From: a virus
Taxonomy: Duplodnaviria > Heunggongvirae > Uroviricota > Caudoviricetes
Strand: one strand, 5' to 3'
Length of the DNA: 6,969 nucleotides
IMG/VR virus record: IMGVR_UViG_3300003155_000382
Shown here: positions 1 to 6,969 of the stretch, in pieces
How the letters are laid out: each line of letters starts with the position of its first letter
How positions within the stretch are numbered: the stretch's first letter is position 1
Made by a program: the position numbers and the translations under genes
The notes under the pieces: model-generated
Told to the model about the DNA's origin: nothing
The model's database searches: none
The model's input: the letters and a program-made list of their open reading frames with translations, nothing else

Positions 1-88
1 GCGCGGGGTATGCCCCTTACTGCCACCTTTACCCATAGATAATTCCCGAAACAGTAATCAATTTTATGCGAACCATATAACGACCGCT

Positions 89-134
89 TGCAACAAAAAT
101 GCATCTGTTGTATTTCATTTGTTAAAACTTAAAT
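89..134 (+). promoter_or_regulatory. Candidate promoter region for sodC (hexamers not confidently assigned)
   Basis: TTGCAA at 89-94 and AT-rich -10-like hexamers (e.g. TTAAAT around 129-134) lie 35-80 bp upstream of the sodC ATG. A weak Shine-Dalgarno (ACGGGG) sits 5-10 nt before the ATG at 170. Pattern-based only. Confidence 0.2.
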
Positions 135-169
135 CACCTTGATTAACAACACGAAATGACGGGGTATTT

Positions 170-691
170 ATGATAAAAAAAATACTTGCTGTAACTGCGC
201 TACTTAGTGGAGCCGTAATGGCTGATACAATGACGATCCCTGTAAATCTCGTTTCCTCAGAAGGAGTAGGGAAAAATATAGGGGAAATAACTATTTCAGA
301 AACCAGCTACGGATTGCTGTTCACTCCTCATCTGAAAGAACTGCCACCAGGGTTACATGGCTTTCATATCCATGAAAATGCCAGTTGTGATCCCGGTCTG
401 ATTAATGGAAAAAAAGTGCCAGCTCTTGCTGCCGGTGGGCATTATGATCCTGAACAAACAAATAAACATCTTGGGCCGTACAATCCGGAGGGCCATCTGG
501 GTGATCTACCAGCACTCTATGTCAACTCAGAAGGAAATGCAGAAAACCCGGTTCTGAGTCCAAAAATAAAAAAAATAAGCCAGATAAAAGAACGGGCGAT
601 CATGATTCATGCCGGAGGGGATAATCATTCCGATTCACCTGCTCCTCTGGGGGGTGGGGGCGCAAGACTGGCATGCGGAATAATTAAATAA
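170..691 (+). CDS. sodC: Periplasmic Cu,Zn superoxide dismutase (SodC family), prophage-borne copy
   Basis: 173 aa with an N-terminal signal peptide (MIKKILAVTALLSGAVMA, AxA-type cleavage site). SodC hallmarks are present: HGFHIH copper-ligand motif, GGHYDP...KH...GHLGDLP zinc-loop histidines and aspartate, the disulfide cysteine pair (NASCDP and RLACG), and the C-terminal GGGGARLACGIIK with the conserved arginine. The gene is AT-rich, consistent with horizontal acquisition. Confidence 0.9.
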   Translation: MIKKILAVTALLSGAVMADTMTIPVNLVSSEGVGKNIGEITISETSYGLLFTPHLKELPPGLHGFHIHENASCDPGLINGKKVPALAAGGHYDPEQTNKHLGPYNPEGHLGDLPALYVNSEGNAENPVLSPKIKKISQIKERAIMIHAGGDNHSDSPAPLGGGGARLACGIIK

Positions 692-706
692 CAAACAGCC
701 TAAAGC

Positions 707-732
707 AATCACCGTCATAGCTGGCGGTGATT
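707..732. other. Perfect 8-bp inverted repeat (AATCACCG-N10-CGGTGATT) just after the sodC stop
   Basis: Read directly from the sequence. There is no T-run on either side, so it is not a canonical intrinsic terminator; it may be an RNA stability element or a protein-binding palindrome. Confidence 0.3.
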
Positions 733-733
733 A

Positions 734-940
734 TCAGCGACCAATAACCACAACCTGACCACCATCCCCTTCATCTGCCGTGCTGATCTCCTGAGAGACC
801 ACACGTGACCCCACGCGCAGTTCACCGTACAGAACAGGCAGAACATTGCCCTGGGCAACCAGGTTATTCAAAGGCATCCTCAACGAATGGGATTCCCTCG
901 TCGCTCTGTTGAAGTCTGAAATGAAGATACACGGAAACAA
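734..940 (-). pseudogene. Short GC-rich ORF, probably a remnant of a longer gene; function unknown
   Basis: 68 codons with a TTG start and an in-frame stop only 4 codons upstream. GC content is clearly higher than the flanking AT-rich sodC and intergenic DNA. I do not recognise the protein sequence. Confidence 0.2.
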
Positions 941-1044
941 AGCACCAGAGACTTACAGAAGAATTAGCGAGCTACGCAAGGACTAACCACAGCCTCACAC
1001 TCAATGAGGCCTGTTCATTTCTCAAGATATCCAGACCTACCATT

Positions 1045-1067
1045 GCCGCATCAATGCGGCTTTTCTT
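1045..1067 (+). terminator. Rho-independent terminator between the sodC unit and xis
   Basis: GCCGCA-TCAA-TGCGGC stem-loop (1045-1060) followed directly by TTTTCTT (1061-1067). On the opposite strand there is no T-run, so it is unidirectional (+). Confidence 0.6.
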
Positions 1068-1091
1068 GCGTGTAATTGCGGAGACTTTGCG

Positions 1092-1310
1092 ATGTACTTG
1101 ACACTTCAGGAGTGGAATGCACGCCAGCGACGCCCAAGAAGCCTTGAAACAGTTCGTCGATGGGTACGCGAGTGCAGGATATTCCCTCCTCCGGTTAAGG
1201 ATGGAAGAGAGTATCTGTTCCACGAATCAGCGGTAAAGGTTGACTTAAATCGACCAGTAACAGGTAGCCTTTTGAAGAGGATCAGAAATGGGAAGAAGGC
1301 GAAGTCATGA
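1092..1310 (+). CDS. xis: Excisionase Xis, lambda type
   Basis: 72 aa, [72 protein letters not shown]. As far as I can recall this is essentially identical to phage lambda Xis. GGAG Shine-Dalgarno at 1080-1083. The 3' end overlaps the int start by 23 bp, as in lambda. Confidence 0.95.
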   Translation: MYLTLQEWNARQRRPRSLETVRRWVRECRIFPPPVKDGREYLFHESAVKVDLNRPVTGSLLKRIRNGKKAKS

Positions 1311-2358
1311 GCGCCGGGATTTACCCCCTAACCTTTATATAAGAAACAATGGATATTACTGCTACAGGGACCCAAGGACGGGTAAAGAGTTCGGATTAGG
1401 CCGAGACAGGAGGATAGCAATCACTGAAGCAATACAGGCCAATATTGAGTTGCTATCCGGGAACAGGCGTGAGTCACTGATAGACAGAATTAAAGGCGCT
1501 GACGCAATCACTCTTCATGCGTGGCTTGACCGATATGAAACAATCCTCAGCGAGAGGGGTATCAGGCCGAAAACTCTACTCGACTACGCCAGCAAAATCA
1601 GGGCAATCCGAAGAAAATTGCCGGACAAACCGCTCGCAGACATATCAACGAAAGAGGTGGCAGCAATGCTAAACACCTACGTAGCAGAAGGTAAAGCGGC
1701 TTCCGCAAAATTAATCAGGTCAACCCTTGTTGACGTTTTTCGTGAGGCAATAGCCGAGGGGCATGTGGCTACGAATCCGGTAACAGCAACCCGCACAGAA
1801 AAATCAGAAGTAAGGCGTTCAAGACTGACAGCTAATGAATATGTCGCGATTTACCATGCAGCCGAACCGCTCCCAATCTGGCTGAGGCTGGCAATGGATT
1901 TGGCTGTCGTTACAGGGCAGAGAGTAGGCGATTTATGCAGAATGAAATGGTCAGACATAAACGACAACCATCTTCACATTGAGCAGGGTAAAACAGGGGC
2001 TAAGCTCGCCATTCCGCTGACGCTAACGATTGACGCGCTCAATATCTCATTGGCTGATACACTACAGAAATGCAGGGAGGCCAGCGGCAGTGAAACAATA
2101 ATTGCATCAACGCATCACGAACCGCTTTCCCCGAAAACAGTATCTAAGTATTTTACAAAGGCGAGAAATGCATCTGGACTCTCATTTGATGGAGACCCGC
2201 CAACATTCCATGAACTGCGCAGCCTGTCGGCGAGGCTATACCGGAATCAGATTGGCGATAAGTTTGCTCAACGTCTTCTCGGGCATAAATCAGATTCAAT
2301 GGCGGCGCGTTACAGGGACAGTCGCGGGCGGGAGTGGGACAAAATTGAAATATCATAA
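1288..2358 (+). CDS. int: Tyrosine site-specific integrase, lambda Int family
   Basis: 356 aa, the same length as lambda Int. The first ~55 residues (arm-binding domain) match lambda Int as I recall it. Catalytic residues are conserved in context: R in [10 protein letters not shown] in [13 protein letters not shown] and R in [12 protein letters not shown] in LLGHKSD, and Y in AARYRD. AGAGGA Shine-Dalgarno sits upstream of the ATG. Confidence 0.95.
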
Positions 2359-2979
2359 TGGTTTTATTTTGATTAATAATGACCAGCGCACATTAACATA
2401 TTGATAATTAATGAAATTTTTAATATACAACTTCCATGTCATAAGTTGTTGCAGACTGACTGCGCGCATTCCGTTGTCAGTTTTTGTGGCGCTTCCGGTG
2501 TGGTAGATGATGTAACGTCCCATCCATACCATTAAGTGCTGGTCATCGCCCTGATCGAAAAAAATCATATCGCCAGGCAACGCCTGGTTTATGTCCTGGC
2601 CAATAAAATGGCTGTTGTACTGAATCAAATTAATTGCGGTCACATAGGGGCCAGTTTTCCCATTCCCCTGGCTCCAGTTTTGTGCCAATTGCCGCTGTTC
2701 AGGTGTTAGCGCCATCTCCGGCGGCAGATATTGGTTAGATATGCTGTTATTTTTTAGCCATTTACTGTCATGAACTTTCAACGCCTCGTTTGCCGCAAAG
2801 CGCACCAGACCCGCGCAATCCTGCTGATACCAACGTGGGCTTGGCCCCTGACGAAGTTGTTCCTGGGCAATGCGCACAAACCAGGCACGAAATAGTCCCG
2901 ATTGTTCGACATCCAGCATTTCGCTATGGGCGAAAAAACAAAACAGCCAGCAAATCAGCGCCGACAACACGCGCCTCAT
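2353..2979 (-). CDS. yfaT: YfaT-like DUF1175 family protein; 3' end runs through the att core into prophage DNA
   Basis: 208 aa. Assigned from position and size: in E. coli K-12 the gene order is gyrA-yfaA-yfaT, all on the same strand, and YfaT is about 207 aa. Its start overlaps the yfaA stop (ATGA), suggesting translational coupling. The last ~26 codons are extremely AT-rich and lie on the phage side of the att core. Confidence 0.7.
2356..2448. other. Prophage attachment site at the int-proximal junction (attL-type: P' arm, IHF site and core)
   Basis: Starting at the int stop codon, the sequence is colinear with the lambda P' arm as I recall it from lambda attP and attL, with identical segment lengths. 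It contains three arm-type-like repeats (2356-2386), an IHF-like site, and a core CAACTT(2428-2433)-ccatgtcat-AAGTTG(2443-2448) with the same 6-9-6 architecture as lambda CAGCTT-N9-AAGTTG. Confidence 0.7.
2394..2406 (-). promoter_or_regulatory. IHF binding site candidate (H'-equivalent)
   Basis: The reverse complement reads TATCAAtatgTTA, a full match to the IHF core consensus WATCAANNNNTTR. It lies at the same distance from the core as the lambda H' site (TATCAAtttgTTG). Confidence 0.5.
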
Positions 2980-4673
2980 AATGGTTGCCAGCTAACAGGC
3001 AACCACTGCCAGGCAGCCCCGGGCTCCATCTTGACCAGTTTCATTGCATAACGGGGTTGTTGCGATAAAGCGTCCAGCTTCGGCATTAATAAAGTCTGCG
3101 CTGCGTTATAAAAAACAGGCTCAAGGTTTTTTGGCAAGCTGGCCAATGTTTCATTACGCAGTAATTTTGCCACCCCTTGTGGATTGATATAGACCGGAAT
3201 GACGCCATCAGCCGGTATTACATCCACCATTGCCGGGCGCGTTTTGTTCAGCGTTTGCAGCGCGTTATTGACCAGCGTGTCGTCAAGGGAGAAAATCAGC
3301 GTCTTGTTCTGCATCGCCAGCGAGACGCGGAAAAAATAATCGGACATCAGTTGTTCTGGTTTCGCCGCCTGGGCTGCGGGATACTGACCATAACGGGAGC
3401 TGACTTCACGCCGCCAGATTTGCGCGTCGCCCTGTTGTGTTTGCGTTACCGGCAACACACCTTCAGGTGCTTTGCTCTCGAGGGCCCCGATTGTTTGTGT
3501 AAACAGCTTCCCTGGCAGTTGCGCTTGCTCGGCAGCGCCATCAAATTGGCCAACAAACAGGGGGGTTTGCAACCTGGAATCTTCATACCAGCATAGCCCG
3601 GCAGCACCGTCCAACATCCCGCTCAATTTGTCGTTTTCCTGGCTGATATGCGAGAGCATCTCTTCGGCAATACCGTGCGAATAAGGCAGCGCCACGCAGA
3701 AGCTGGCACCAGCAGGCATACTGCGCCATACCGGAGTGAAATCAAAACTGGCATCGACACTGGCGGATTCATCATTCAACGCCAGAAAGCTGCGCCAGCC
3801 ATCATTGCTCATTTCAAAGCGCACGCCAGCAAAAGAAGGAATTAACCGCTGGTAACCTAAACCCAGCAAATTAGCGCTAACCACGATACGCTGGCGAACA
3901 AGTGTTTTTTCAGCGGAGGATTGTAAACGGTCTTCCAGGCCAAAGCTGGCCTCCCAGTGTTTTTTCCCGCTCAACAAATCACTCGCGATCGCCGTGGCTT
4001 CGGTATCCTGCTGGTCGCCTTTAAACAACATATCTGTGCTGGAAAAAACCAGCATCTTGTCCTGATAACGGGTAAACAGCAGTGAGTTATTGCCGTTATA
4101 GCGCAGTTGATAAACAGGTATGGTTTCATTATTAATCGTAATGCTACTGATCTCCGTCTTACTTAACTGGCTGTCGCTGGTGGCGGCAAACAGTAACGGC
4201 TCCAATAACTTACTCAAACCACTGCGTTGAATCAGCACGATATAATGCGAGAGATGGCCTTGTTTGTCGTGCCACAGCGCCGCTTGCGCTGGCTGGTCTA
4301 ACAATGAAGAAAAGAGCTTATCTTTCAGCGTTAAATCATGTTCATACACAATGCGCCGAATACTACCTTCAATCCCCAGACGGTCAGCATGGTTCTGATA
4401 ATAAAAAACAAAATCTTCACTTAGAACATCGCGCAGAAAAGGAATTGTGAGGAGGTCTTTGGGAAGCTGGCTTAACGAATCGCTGTCGAGAAAGAGGTCC
4501 GGCTCATTGAGATCGATTTGCAGATTGTTGTGCACCACCAGAGGCGACAACGTTTTTTCTGGCCCACTGCCAGCATATTGCAATGCCCAGACACCCGCGG
4601 AAAGCAGTGCTATTGCGCCAAAACCTACAAGACCATAAAACCGCCAGCCTTTCGCCCTTTTTTCACCACTCAT
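2976..4673 (-). CDS. yfaA: YfaA-like DUF2138 family protein (N-terminal membrane anchor)
   Basis: About 565 aa, lying immediately downstream of gyrA as in E. coli K-12. The likely start is the ATG at 4671-4673, which has an AGGAA Shine-Dalgarno 7 nt upstream; the GTG two codons further up (4677-4679) has no usable spacing. The N-terminus has a hydrophobic segment ([22 protein letters not shown]). The stop overlaps the yfaT start. Confidence 0.7.
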
Positions 4674-4780
4674 TGCCACATTCCTTGTGTAAAGCCAGCC
4701 ATTTTTTACGGGCGATGCAAAATTTTCTCGCGCCTTAATACAACAAAAGCCCAGACTTTGCAGCCTGGACTTTTCAATTC

Positions 4781-4821: not shown

Positions 4822-6969
4822 TTATTCTTCTTCTGGTTCGTCGTCAACGTCCACTTCCGGAGCGATTTCATCGTCCCCTTCCGCTGCGCTGCCGTCAATA
4901 GCATCCAGATCTTCATCGTCAACTGGTTCTGCAACACGTTGCAGCCCCACCACGTTCTCCCCTTCTGCAGTACGGATAAGGATCACGCCCTGGGTGTTAC
5001 GGCCCACGATGCTGATCTCCGACACGCGAGTACGGACCAGCGTCCCCGCATCAGTGATCATCATGATCTGGTCGCAGTCATCAACCTGCACCGCGCCAAC
5101 CACTAAACCGTTACGTTCGGTAACTTTGATGGAGATGACCCCTTTCGTCGCACGCGACTTAGTTGGATACTCCTCCACCGCGGTACGTTTACCGTAACCG
5201 TTCTGCGTTGCAGTAAGGATTGCGCCATCGCCGCGCGGCACGATCAGAGAGACGACTTTATCGCCTTCACCTAAACGGATACCGCGAACACCGGTAGTGT
5301 TGCACCCCATTGCGCGGACGGAAGACTCTTTGAAGCGCACCACTTTACCTTCGGCGGAGAACAGCATCACTTCGTCTTCACCGCTGGTCAGGTCAACGCC
5401 GATAAGTTCATCGCCTTCAACCAGTTTGATCGCCACTTTACCAGCAGTACGCAGGCGGTTGAATTCGGTCAGGACCGTTTTCTTCACGGTACCGTTAGCG
5501 GTCGCCATGAAGACTTTCACGCCTTCTTCAAACTCGGTCACCGGCAGGATCGCAGTGATACGTTCGTCCTGCTCCAGCGGCAGCAGGTTGACTATCGGAC
5601 GACCACGCGCGCCACGGGTCGCTTCCGGCAGTTGATAAACTTTCATCGAATAGACGCGACCACGGCTGGAGAAGCACAGGATATGATCGTGGGTGTTCGC
5701 CACCAGCAGTCGGTCGATAAAGTCTTCATCCTTAATACGTGCGGCAGATTTACCTTTACCGCCACGACGCTGCGCTTCGTATTCAGAAAGCGGCTGATAT
5801 TTCACATACCCCTGATGAGAGAGCGTGACAACAACATCTTCCTGAGTGATCAGATCTTCCAGGTTGATATCTGCGCTGTTGGCAGTGATTTCCGTGCGGC
5901 GTTTGTCACCGAACTGTTCACGAACCAGCTCCAGCTCTTCACGGATCACTTCCATCAAGCGATCGGCGCTGCCAAGAATACGCAACAGTTCCGCAATCTG
6001 ATCCAACAACTCTTTATATTCATCGAGCAGTTTTTCATGCTCAAGGCCGGTCAGTTTCTGCAAACGCAGATCCAGAATCGCCTGAGCTTGCTGCTCGGTC
6101 AGATAGTACAGCCCGTCACGCACGCCAAACTCGGGTTCCAGCCATTCTGGACGCGCAGCATCGTCGCCAGCACGTTCCAGCATTGCGGCAACGTTGCCCA
6201 GCTGCCACGGATTAGCAACCAGTGCGGTTTTCGCTTCTGCCGGGGTTGGCGCATGACGGATCAGTTCAATGATCGGGTCGATGTTCGCCAGCGCCACAGC
6301 TAATGCTTCAAGGATATGCGCACGGTCACGGGCTTTACGCAGTTCGAAAATGGTACGACGGGTCACCACTTCGCGGCGGTGACGAACAAACGCAGCGATG
6401 ATGTCTTTCAGGTTCATGATCTTCGGCTGACCATGGTGCAATGCCACCATGTTGATACCGAAGGAAACCTGCAACTGGGTCTGGGAGTAGAGGTTGTTGA
6501 GCACCACTTCACCGACCGCATCGCGTTTAACTTCAATCACGATGCGCATCCCGTCTTTGTCAGACTCGTCACGCAACGCGCTGATGCCTTCCACGCGTTT
6601 TTCTTTTACCAGTTCCGCAATTTTCTCGATCAGACGCGCTTTGTTCACCTGATACGGAATTTCGTGGACGATAATAGTTTCACGCCCGGTTTTGGCGTCA
6701 ACTTCCACTTCAGCACGCGCACGGATGTACACCTTACCGCGACCGGTACGGTAAGCTTCTTCGATACCACGGCGACCATTAATGATCGCTGCCGTCGGGA
6801 AGTCCGGCCCCGGGATGTGTTCCATCAGCCCTTCAATGCTGATGTCTTCATCATCGATATACGCCAGACAACCGTTGATGACTTCCGTCAGGTTGTGCGG
6901 CGGGATGTTGGTTGCCATACCTACGGCGATACCGGAAGAACCGTTCACCAGCAGGTTAGGAATTTTGGT
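4822..6969 (-). CDS. gyrA: DNA gyrase subunit A, 5'-truncated by the window edge
   Basis: The translation matches E. coli GyrA from about residue 161 ([27 protein letters not shown]...) to the acidic C-terminal tail (...[19 protein letters not shown]). The gene continues beyond position 6969. The first in-frame start in the ORF track is not the true start. Confidence 0.97.

Follow-up and report, generated by a model that had tools for sequence, protein, structure and literature searches.

An HK022-type xis-int module with an att core unlike that of HK022 in a lambdoid prophage remnant at yfaT of Escherichia albertii

Positions 1092-2358 of the 6,969-nt stretch of DNA analysed here (the window) are, with high confidence, the site-specific recombination module, xis and int, of a lambdoid prophage with an HK022-type integrase, and no observation speaks against this identification. 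The module joins lambda-like and HK022-lineage sequence within Int. This mosaic is real, but it is the well-known, textbook HK022 version, and as a finding it is ordinary: HK022 and lambda Int are a classic model system for recombinase specificity, and the mosaic nature of the HK022 integrase was reportedly described in 1989 by Yagil and colleagues, whose int record we take to be X51962. The preliminary description of this DNA overlooked that the integrase is of the HK022 type, that the prophage has decayed, and that the att core is unlike HK022's as well as lambda's. The mildly new point is an explicit comparison of att cores, in which the same Int is seen with two overlaps and two targets. 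We lean towards a reading in which a nearly unchanged HK022-type Int serves the torS-torT site in HK022 and in Stx1a phages, and yfaT here and in an E. coli O26 prophage. The att region with its overlap would have been exchanged by recombination some 50 nt short of the int stop, so that att DNA would have done the retargeting by itself; the 7.1-kb islet with its nleA-like gene, nleG and sodC would then still be excisable and mobilisable. The module and the elements just upstream of it are arranged as follows.

1045-1060, plus strand: terminator-like hairpin GCCGCATCAATGCGGC followed by a T-run (terminator scan), marking where the lambda-shared block begins on the left
1066-1079, plus strand: TTGC-N6-TTGC box of the predicted cII-dependent pI promoter region, which lies upstream of xis and runs into it
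1092-1310, plus strand: xis, winged-helix excisionase of 72 aa (Pfam Exc, PF07825, E = 4e-41)
1288-2358, plus strand: int, heterobivalent tyrosine integrase of 356 aa, HK022 type (ORF listing, Pfam and alignments)
1288-1452, plus strand: int codons 1-55, arm-binding part, identical in amino acids to lambda and HK022
1453-2309, plus strand: int codons 56 to about 341, linker, core-binding and catalytic domains of the HK022 lineage, with specificity residues in the HK022 state
2310-2358, plus strand: last 16 int codons and the stop, from another lineage together with the att region; second mosaic junction, about 50 nt before the int stop

The coordinates first given for the module are exact, and in the ORF listing xis and int overlap by 23 nt, as lambda's do. 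Xis had been called identical to that of lambda; near-identity holds (71/72 residues) but exact identity does not, residue 59 being serine here and glycine in lambda. All 72 residues are shared with HK022 Xis, and the full length of the protein matches the lambda Xis structure 1pm6. Int carries the Pfam domains Arm-DNA-bind_1, Phage_int_SAM_1, Phage_int_M and Phage_integrase. The first of these, the N-terminal arm-type DNA-binding domain, is PF09003 over residues 1-68 (E = 7e-29), and this part also fits the N-domain structure of lambda Int, 1kjk; PF02899, PF22022 and PF00589 cover the core-binding and catalytic domains. Residues 1-355 match the lambda Int structures 5j0n and 1z1g (E = 1e-179). 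An arm domain, core-binding and catalytic domains, and arm and IHF sites on either side of a core in which inverted core-type sites border a 7-bp overlap are all present, as in a heterobivalent integrase of the lambda family. The protein is 97% identical to HK022 Int, identical at 355/356 residues to the Int of the O26 prophage and 76% identical to lambda Int, and over the xis-int DNA, identity is 96.7% with HK022 and 99.1% with four Stx1a-converting phages (LC744181-LC744184). Near-identity and the specificity residues place the module with HK022, whereas the HK022 att core (AGGTGAA) and its torS-torT attB are not those found here.

The rest of the window is prophage cargo and debris on one side of the module and host chromosome on the other.

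170-691, plus strand: sodC, periplasmic Cu/Zn superoxide dismutase, prophage cargo (Pfam Sod_Cu, E = 2e-32)
733-870, minus strand: 3' end left from a lambdoid gpI-type tail assembly gene; E. coli 'tail assembly protein' genes match it at 95.7% nucleotide identity
2353-2979, minus strand: yfaT (DUF1175), the host target gene (Pfam DUF1175 over residues 20-182)
2976-4679, minus strand: yfaA (ORF listing and Pfam)
4822-6948, minus strand: most of gyrA (ORF listing and Pfam)

The window differs at 4 of 6,969 nt from CP007025.1, the genome of E. albertii KF1 (PMC3907721), and its chromosomal portion shares about 92% identity with E. coli. In KF1 the remnant spans 7.1 kb and contains a 440-aa nleA-like ORF, nleG, tail-fibre and J fragments, sodC, the 3' end of the tail assembly gene, xis and int. 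Here attL and attR enclose a unit that has no replication, lysis or morphogenesis genes, as in a defective (grounded) lambdoid prophage. The sodC gene sits between fragments of gpJ and gpI, which are on the opposite strand. For window positions 1-732, megablast against 50,697 phage records and 5,426 complete E. coli genomes found no match, in contrast to the rest of the element. Homology of the HK022/O26 type upstream of xis begins at 866, just inside the right-hand end of the tail fragment, and positions 866-870 thus read as a deletion scar at which the tail gene was fused directly to HK022/434-type sequence upstream of xis and almost the whole prophage was removed. Pfam returned no match for two ORFs in this region, one of 68 aa (737-940, minus strand) and one of 46 aa (846-983, plus strand); the former is assigned to the 3' end of the tail assembly gene because of its DNA similarity.

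A much fuller relative occupies the same site in E. coli O26:H11 11368, where Int (WP_000533670.1) closes a lambdoid prophage of about 50 kb at yfaT. The two elements have identical attL and attR cores, interrupt yfaT at the same point and carry nleA-like and nleG genes next to attR. They differ in that the O26:H11 prophage has early, lysis, head and tail genes, whereas the E. albertii element is a 7.1-kb remnant to which sodC is added. More widely, int lies next to yfaT-yfaA-gyrA in 176 complete E. coli genomes. The type III effector genes nleA or nleA-like (440 aa) and nleG adjoin attR in both species, at positions 4653-7316 of the KF1 locus and 7729-10392 of the O26 locus. Judged by gene content, what is left of the prophage in E. 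albertii, an emerging pathogen, is a small islet of effector genes and sodC that has kept the full excision module.

Insertion into the 3' end of yfaT is evident from comparison with the uninterrupted K-12 gene. The resulting hybrid reading frame consists of 183 native codons followed by 25 phage-encoded codons that run through the core and the P' arm, and it ends 6 nt inside the 3' end of int. Compared with K-12 YfaT, the protein has lost its last 24 residues and has gained 25 unrelated ones, for which the P' arm codes. The gene is a published prophage target (PMC3603311) and is listed in a screen as a candidate for a gene whose integrity is regulated by an integrative element (PMC7192596). 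With the target already listed and the protein annotated in hundreds of genomes, the discovery value of the locus itself is small. The att elements next to int, all on the minus strand, are these; the arm-type sites were placed by their string positions.

2355-2364, minus strand: arm-type Int site P'3 (aligned, like P'2 and P'1, with the lambda and HK022 P' arms)
2366-2375, minus strand: arm-type Int site P'2
2376-2385, minus strand: arm-type Int site P'1
2394-2406, minus strand: IHF site H', TATCAATATGTTA, which fits WATCAANNNNTTR (consensus scan; aligned with lambda H')
2428-2448, minus strand: attL core, with B CAACTTA, overlap TGACATG and C' GAAGTTG on the canonical strand (phage/host junction set against the empty K-12 yfaT site)

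The int stop codon falls within P'3. Lambda is arranged alike, in that the 'int 4' binding feature of NC_001416 overlaps the end of int. The matching attR, GTCCTTC CATGTCA GAAGGAG, was found in both KF1 and O26:H11 11368; in KF1 it adjoins yfaS, 7,074 bp from attL. The attP deduced from the two junctions aligns lengthwise with those of HK022 and lambda, through P1, H1, P2, H', P'1-3, the region of the Xis sites and the sib hairpin. The preliminary description had predicted lambda-like control of directionality, and the layout agrees with that prediction: P'1-P'3 and H' adjoin int, and P1, H1, P2, the Xis-site region and sib lie at the far end of the element in KF1. The recombining sites of this element and of HK022 can be set side by side.

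This element: attP CTCCTTC TGACATG GAAGTTG; attB CAACTTA TGACATG GAAGGAC
HK022: attP ATCCTTT AGGTGAA TAAGTTG; attB GCACTTT AGGTGAA AAAGGTT, located between torS and torT in K-12

The two overlaps, TGACATG and AGGTGAA, are unrelated. The flanking core sites follow a common pattern, with CCTT at C and B' and ACTT at B and C', and the CTT triplet is present in all four core sites of the yfaT element. Both lambda and HK022 Int require CTT in their core sites (bioRxiv 10.1101/2023.11.06.565760), and for HK022 Int the overlap may be arbitrary provided that it is identical in the two partners (PMC7736782). The element at yfaT is a clean natural case of an HK022-type Int paired with a different overlap and attB, and it agrees with the free choice of overlap that experiments have demonstrated and that is put to use in gene-therapy work with HK022 Int. 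Among deposited phages we found no attP of the yfaT type, the best match being HK022 at 83%, which stops immediately short of the overlap; only prophages were seen to carry this att variant. The exact att sites could be used for strain engineering or for tracking the element.

How the module would work can be laid out on established lambda and HK022 biology. Residues 1-64 of Int, the first 55 of which are identical to lambda's, would bind the arm-type sites P1, P2 and P'1-3, and the core-binding and catalytic domains of the HK022 lineage would bind the four CTT-containing core sites, with strand exchange at the edges of the 7-bp overlap TGACATG. IHF would bend the arms at H1, H2 and H'. Together with arm-bound Int, IHF, Xis and probably Fis would build the intasome and set the direction of the reaction, and binding of Xis with Fis to the P arm in attR would enable excision. 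Expression of int and xis is uncertain because the remnant appears to be devoid of phage regulatory genes: in the gene content of KF1, it seems to have no cII, pL or phage regulators of its own that normally drive the two genes. Transcription would then depend on read-through or on co-resident lambdoid prophages.

It is possible, though we consider it unlikely, that int and xis are functionless relics of a dead prophage and are intact only for lack of time to decay. An element cut down to 7.1 kb, scarred by deletions and without a visible cI/cII/N/pL region, would suit such an origin, and a substitution private to the E. albertii Int allele, A171E (codon 1798-1800), is consistent with it; lambda, HK022, the O26 prophage and the Stx1a phages all have alanine at this position. 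Residue 171 belongs to the linker that joins the core-binding domain to the catalytic domain, near E174, which we take to be the site of the IHF-independent Int-h mutation. Against decay, however, both ORFs are intact and the catalytic residues R212, K235, H308, R311, H333 and Y342 are invariant in an alignment of the window, HK022, O26 and lambda Ints, bearing out the earlier statement that all of them are retained. The dN/dS relative to HK022 is about 0.12, and at least 10 contigs, drawn from several E. albertii assemblies and metagenomes, encode exactly this 356-aa Int. The attL, attR, arm, IHF and sib sites are intact as well. The intact ORFs, the dN/dS, the recurrence of the identical protein and the two intact att sites speak for continued selection, and co-resident lambdoid prophages could provide cII or transcription for int. 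The sequence comparisons show the relationships, the junctions, the att sites and the residue states; we infer that Int is active on its present core and that the remnant may still be able to excise.

The residues thought to set core specificity agree with the assignment to HK022. Five positions, which we take to distinguish lambda from HK022 core recognition, are 99, 282, 283, 287 and 319. When the substitutions were mapped onto these positions and onto 329, as the preliminary description had proposed, the window Int was found to have D99, P282, K283, K287, R319 and R329, that is, the HK022 state at every position checked and a non-lambda state at all of them. A literature search for N99D, S282P, G283K, R287K and E319R by name found nothing; according to a review, the difference in specificity between lambda and HK022 comes down largely to five residues (PMC6007267), and N99D and H329R are named in this connection elsewhere (PMC10863862). 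The altered core specificity that had been predicted for this Int is consistent with these HK022-state residues and with an att core unlike lambda's.

The module has a second junction, near position 2310. The int genes of the window and of Stx1a_NIID112183 differ at 13 nt, 11 of them within 2310-2355, whereas over 1453-2309 only 2 nt differ from the Stx1a phages. At the protein level, Stx1a_NIID112183 Int equals the window Int except at residue 171 and at the C terminus, where S356 is replaced by DK; likewise, the window Int ends in ...EIS and that of HK022 in ...EIDK. Beyond the junction, the P' arm is 76-83% identical to HK022-type arms. Stx1a_NIID112183 has an HK022-type core (TTCACCT overlap) with the torS-side flank. 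The Stx1a phages LC744181-LC744184 as a set resemble the window throughout xis-int, with an Int that differs only by E171A and the C-terminal residue or residues, and depart from it in their HK022-type core next to torS and in their divergence from window position 2310 onward. From these alignments, the module is a three-part mosaic made of a block of about 400 bp shared with lambda, which runs from the terminator across pI and xis as far as int codon 55, an int body of the HK022 lineage and a separate att region. Since nearly the same Int is found in a Stx1a phage with an HK022 core, and the junction falls about 50 nt before the int stop, a swap of att DNA is probable; retargeting to yfaT thus probably came from the exchanged att DNA and not from a change in the protein. 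If true, this is a natural example of the retargeting of an integrase through att DNA alone.

The converse, that the Int protein evolved a new core-recognition specificity distinct from that of HK022 and that this explains the location at yfaT, strikes us as quite improbable. There are nine amino acid differences from HK022 Int, several of them in the catalytic domain (G234, K261, G267, T275, E278 and D303), and the C-terminal residue differs from HK022's, all of which such a change could draw on. Yet Stx1a_NIID112183 resides on an HK022-type core with an Int that differs only at residue 171 and at the C terminus, and neither of these two differences between users of yfaT and users of torS-torT is at one of the five specificity positions or at 329. 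Moreover, the specificity residues of the window Int are in the HK022 state, its four core sites share the HK022 CCTT/ACTT pattern, and published work leaves the overlap free as long as the partners match (PMC7736782).

The comparison with HK022 itself (NC_002166 gp29/gp30; X51962) can be drawn as follows. The likeness extends over Xis (72/72), Int (97%), the junction with lambda at codon 55/56, the states at 99, 282, 283, 287, 319 and 329, and homologous P and P' arms with their arm-type, IHF and sib elements. The differences are the overlap (AGGTGAA in HK022, TGACATG here), the C site (ATCCTTT versus CTCCTTC), the target (the torS-torT intergenic site versus yfaT), a P' arm that is 83% identical, the nine amino acid changes, and an Int of 357 aa in HK022 compared to 356 aa here. 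Lambda (NC_001416; 5j0n, 1z1g, 1pm6) shares the architecture, the catalytic residues, Int residues 1-55, 71/72 residues of Xis, the pI/cII box and the layout of the arms. It differs in Int past residue 55, where identity is 71%, and in its specificity residues, core and attB.

The junction with lambda within Int is sharp. The preliminary description had Int matching lambda up to about residue 55 and falling to roughly 70% identity from residue 56 onward, and the alignment agrees on both counts: residues 1-55 are identical (55/55; 157/165 nt; dS 0.26, dN 0), and residues 56-356 are 71% identical (214/301). Divergence along the whole protein is not uniform (Fisher exact p = 7e-8), a point on which the original proposal of a mosaic could have failed. 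By domain, identity to lambda is 91% in the N domain (1-64), 70% in the core-binding domain (65-169) and 74% in the catalytic domain (170-356). In the DNA, lambda is matched at about 36% in 892-1054, at 92-96% over about 1045-1452 and at 67% over 1453-2355; for int codons 56-356 nucleotide identity is 67% to lambda and 96% to HK022. The profile of HK022 against lambda is exactly the same as that of the window.

Synonymous sites locate the boundary independently of the protein. Divergence from lambda at these sites is low in xis (dS 0.13) and in int codons 1-55 (dS 0.26) and is saturated in codons 56-356 (pS 0.80). This jump at codon 55/56 identifies the boundary as a recombination junction and not as a difference in constraint alone. 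A selection-only account, in which the whole gene diverged from lambda at once and stronger purifying selection preserved Xis and the arm-binding part, draws on the dN of 0 over residues 1-55, a sign of strong constraint, and on the 8 synonymous differences within those 55 identical residues, by which the block is not a very recent transfer; we rejected it as extremely improbable, because synonymous divergence is unequal on the two sides of codon 55, the switch in identity is completed within a few codons, and lambda identity is also high (92%) in the non-coding stretch 1055-1091, just 5' of xis, compared to 36% at 892-1054.

The left edge of the lambda-shared block coincides with the terminator-like hairpin at 1045-1060, where identity to lambda climbs from about 36% to more than 92%; in phage 434 records, a terminator is annotated in the homologous stretch. 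The TTGC-N6-TTGC box that follows at 1066-1079 is invariant in the window, HK022, the O26 prophage, the Stx1a phage and lambda, and the homologous stretch of phage 434 carries CII-site and promoter annotations. From established lambda biology, we take this box to be the cII-dependent pI region.

A scan for Int in one genome per species returned mostly 76%-identical matches, which are lambda int, and a single partial HK022-type match, in E. whittamii. The 76% matches were often on contigs of about 1x coverage, in assemblies of Shewanella, Pseudomonas, Oceanobacillus, Bradyrhizobium, Pseudoxanthomonas, Paenibacillus and others; lambda int in such unrelated bacterial assemblies looks like contamination with lambda DNA. 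In phage mEp506 (PV340542.1), the int frame breaks near codon 14 relative to HK022, and the record annotates a shorter integrase; either the record has a sequencing error there or the frameshift is real.
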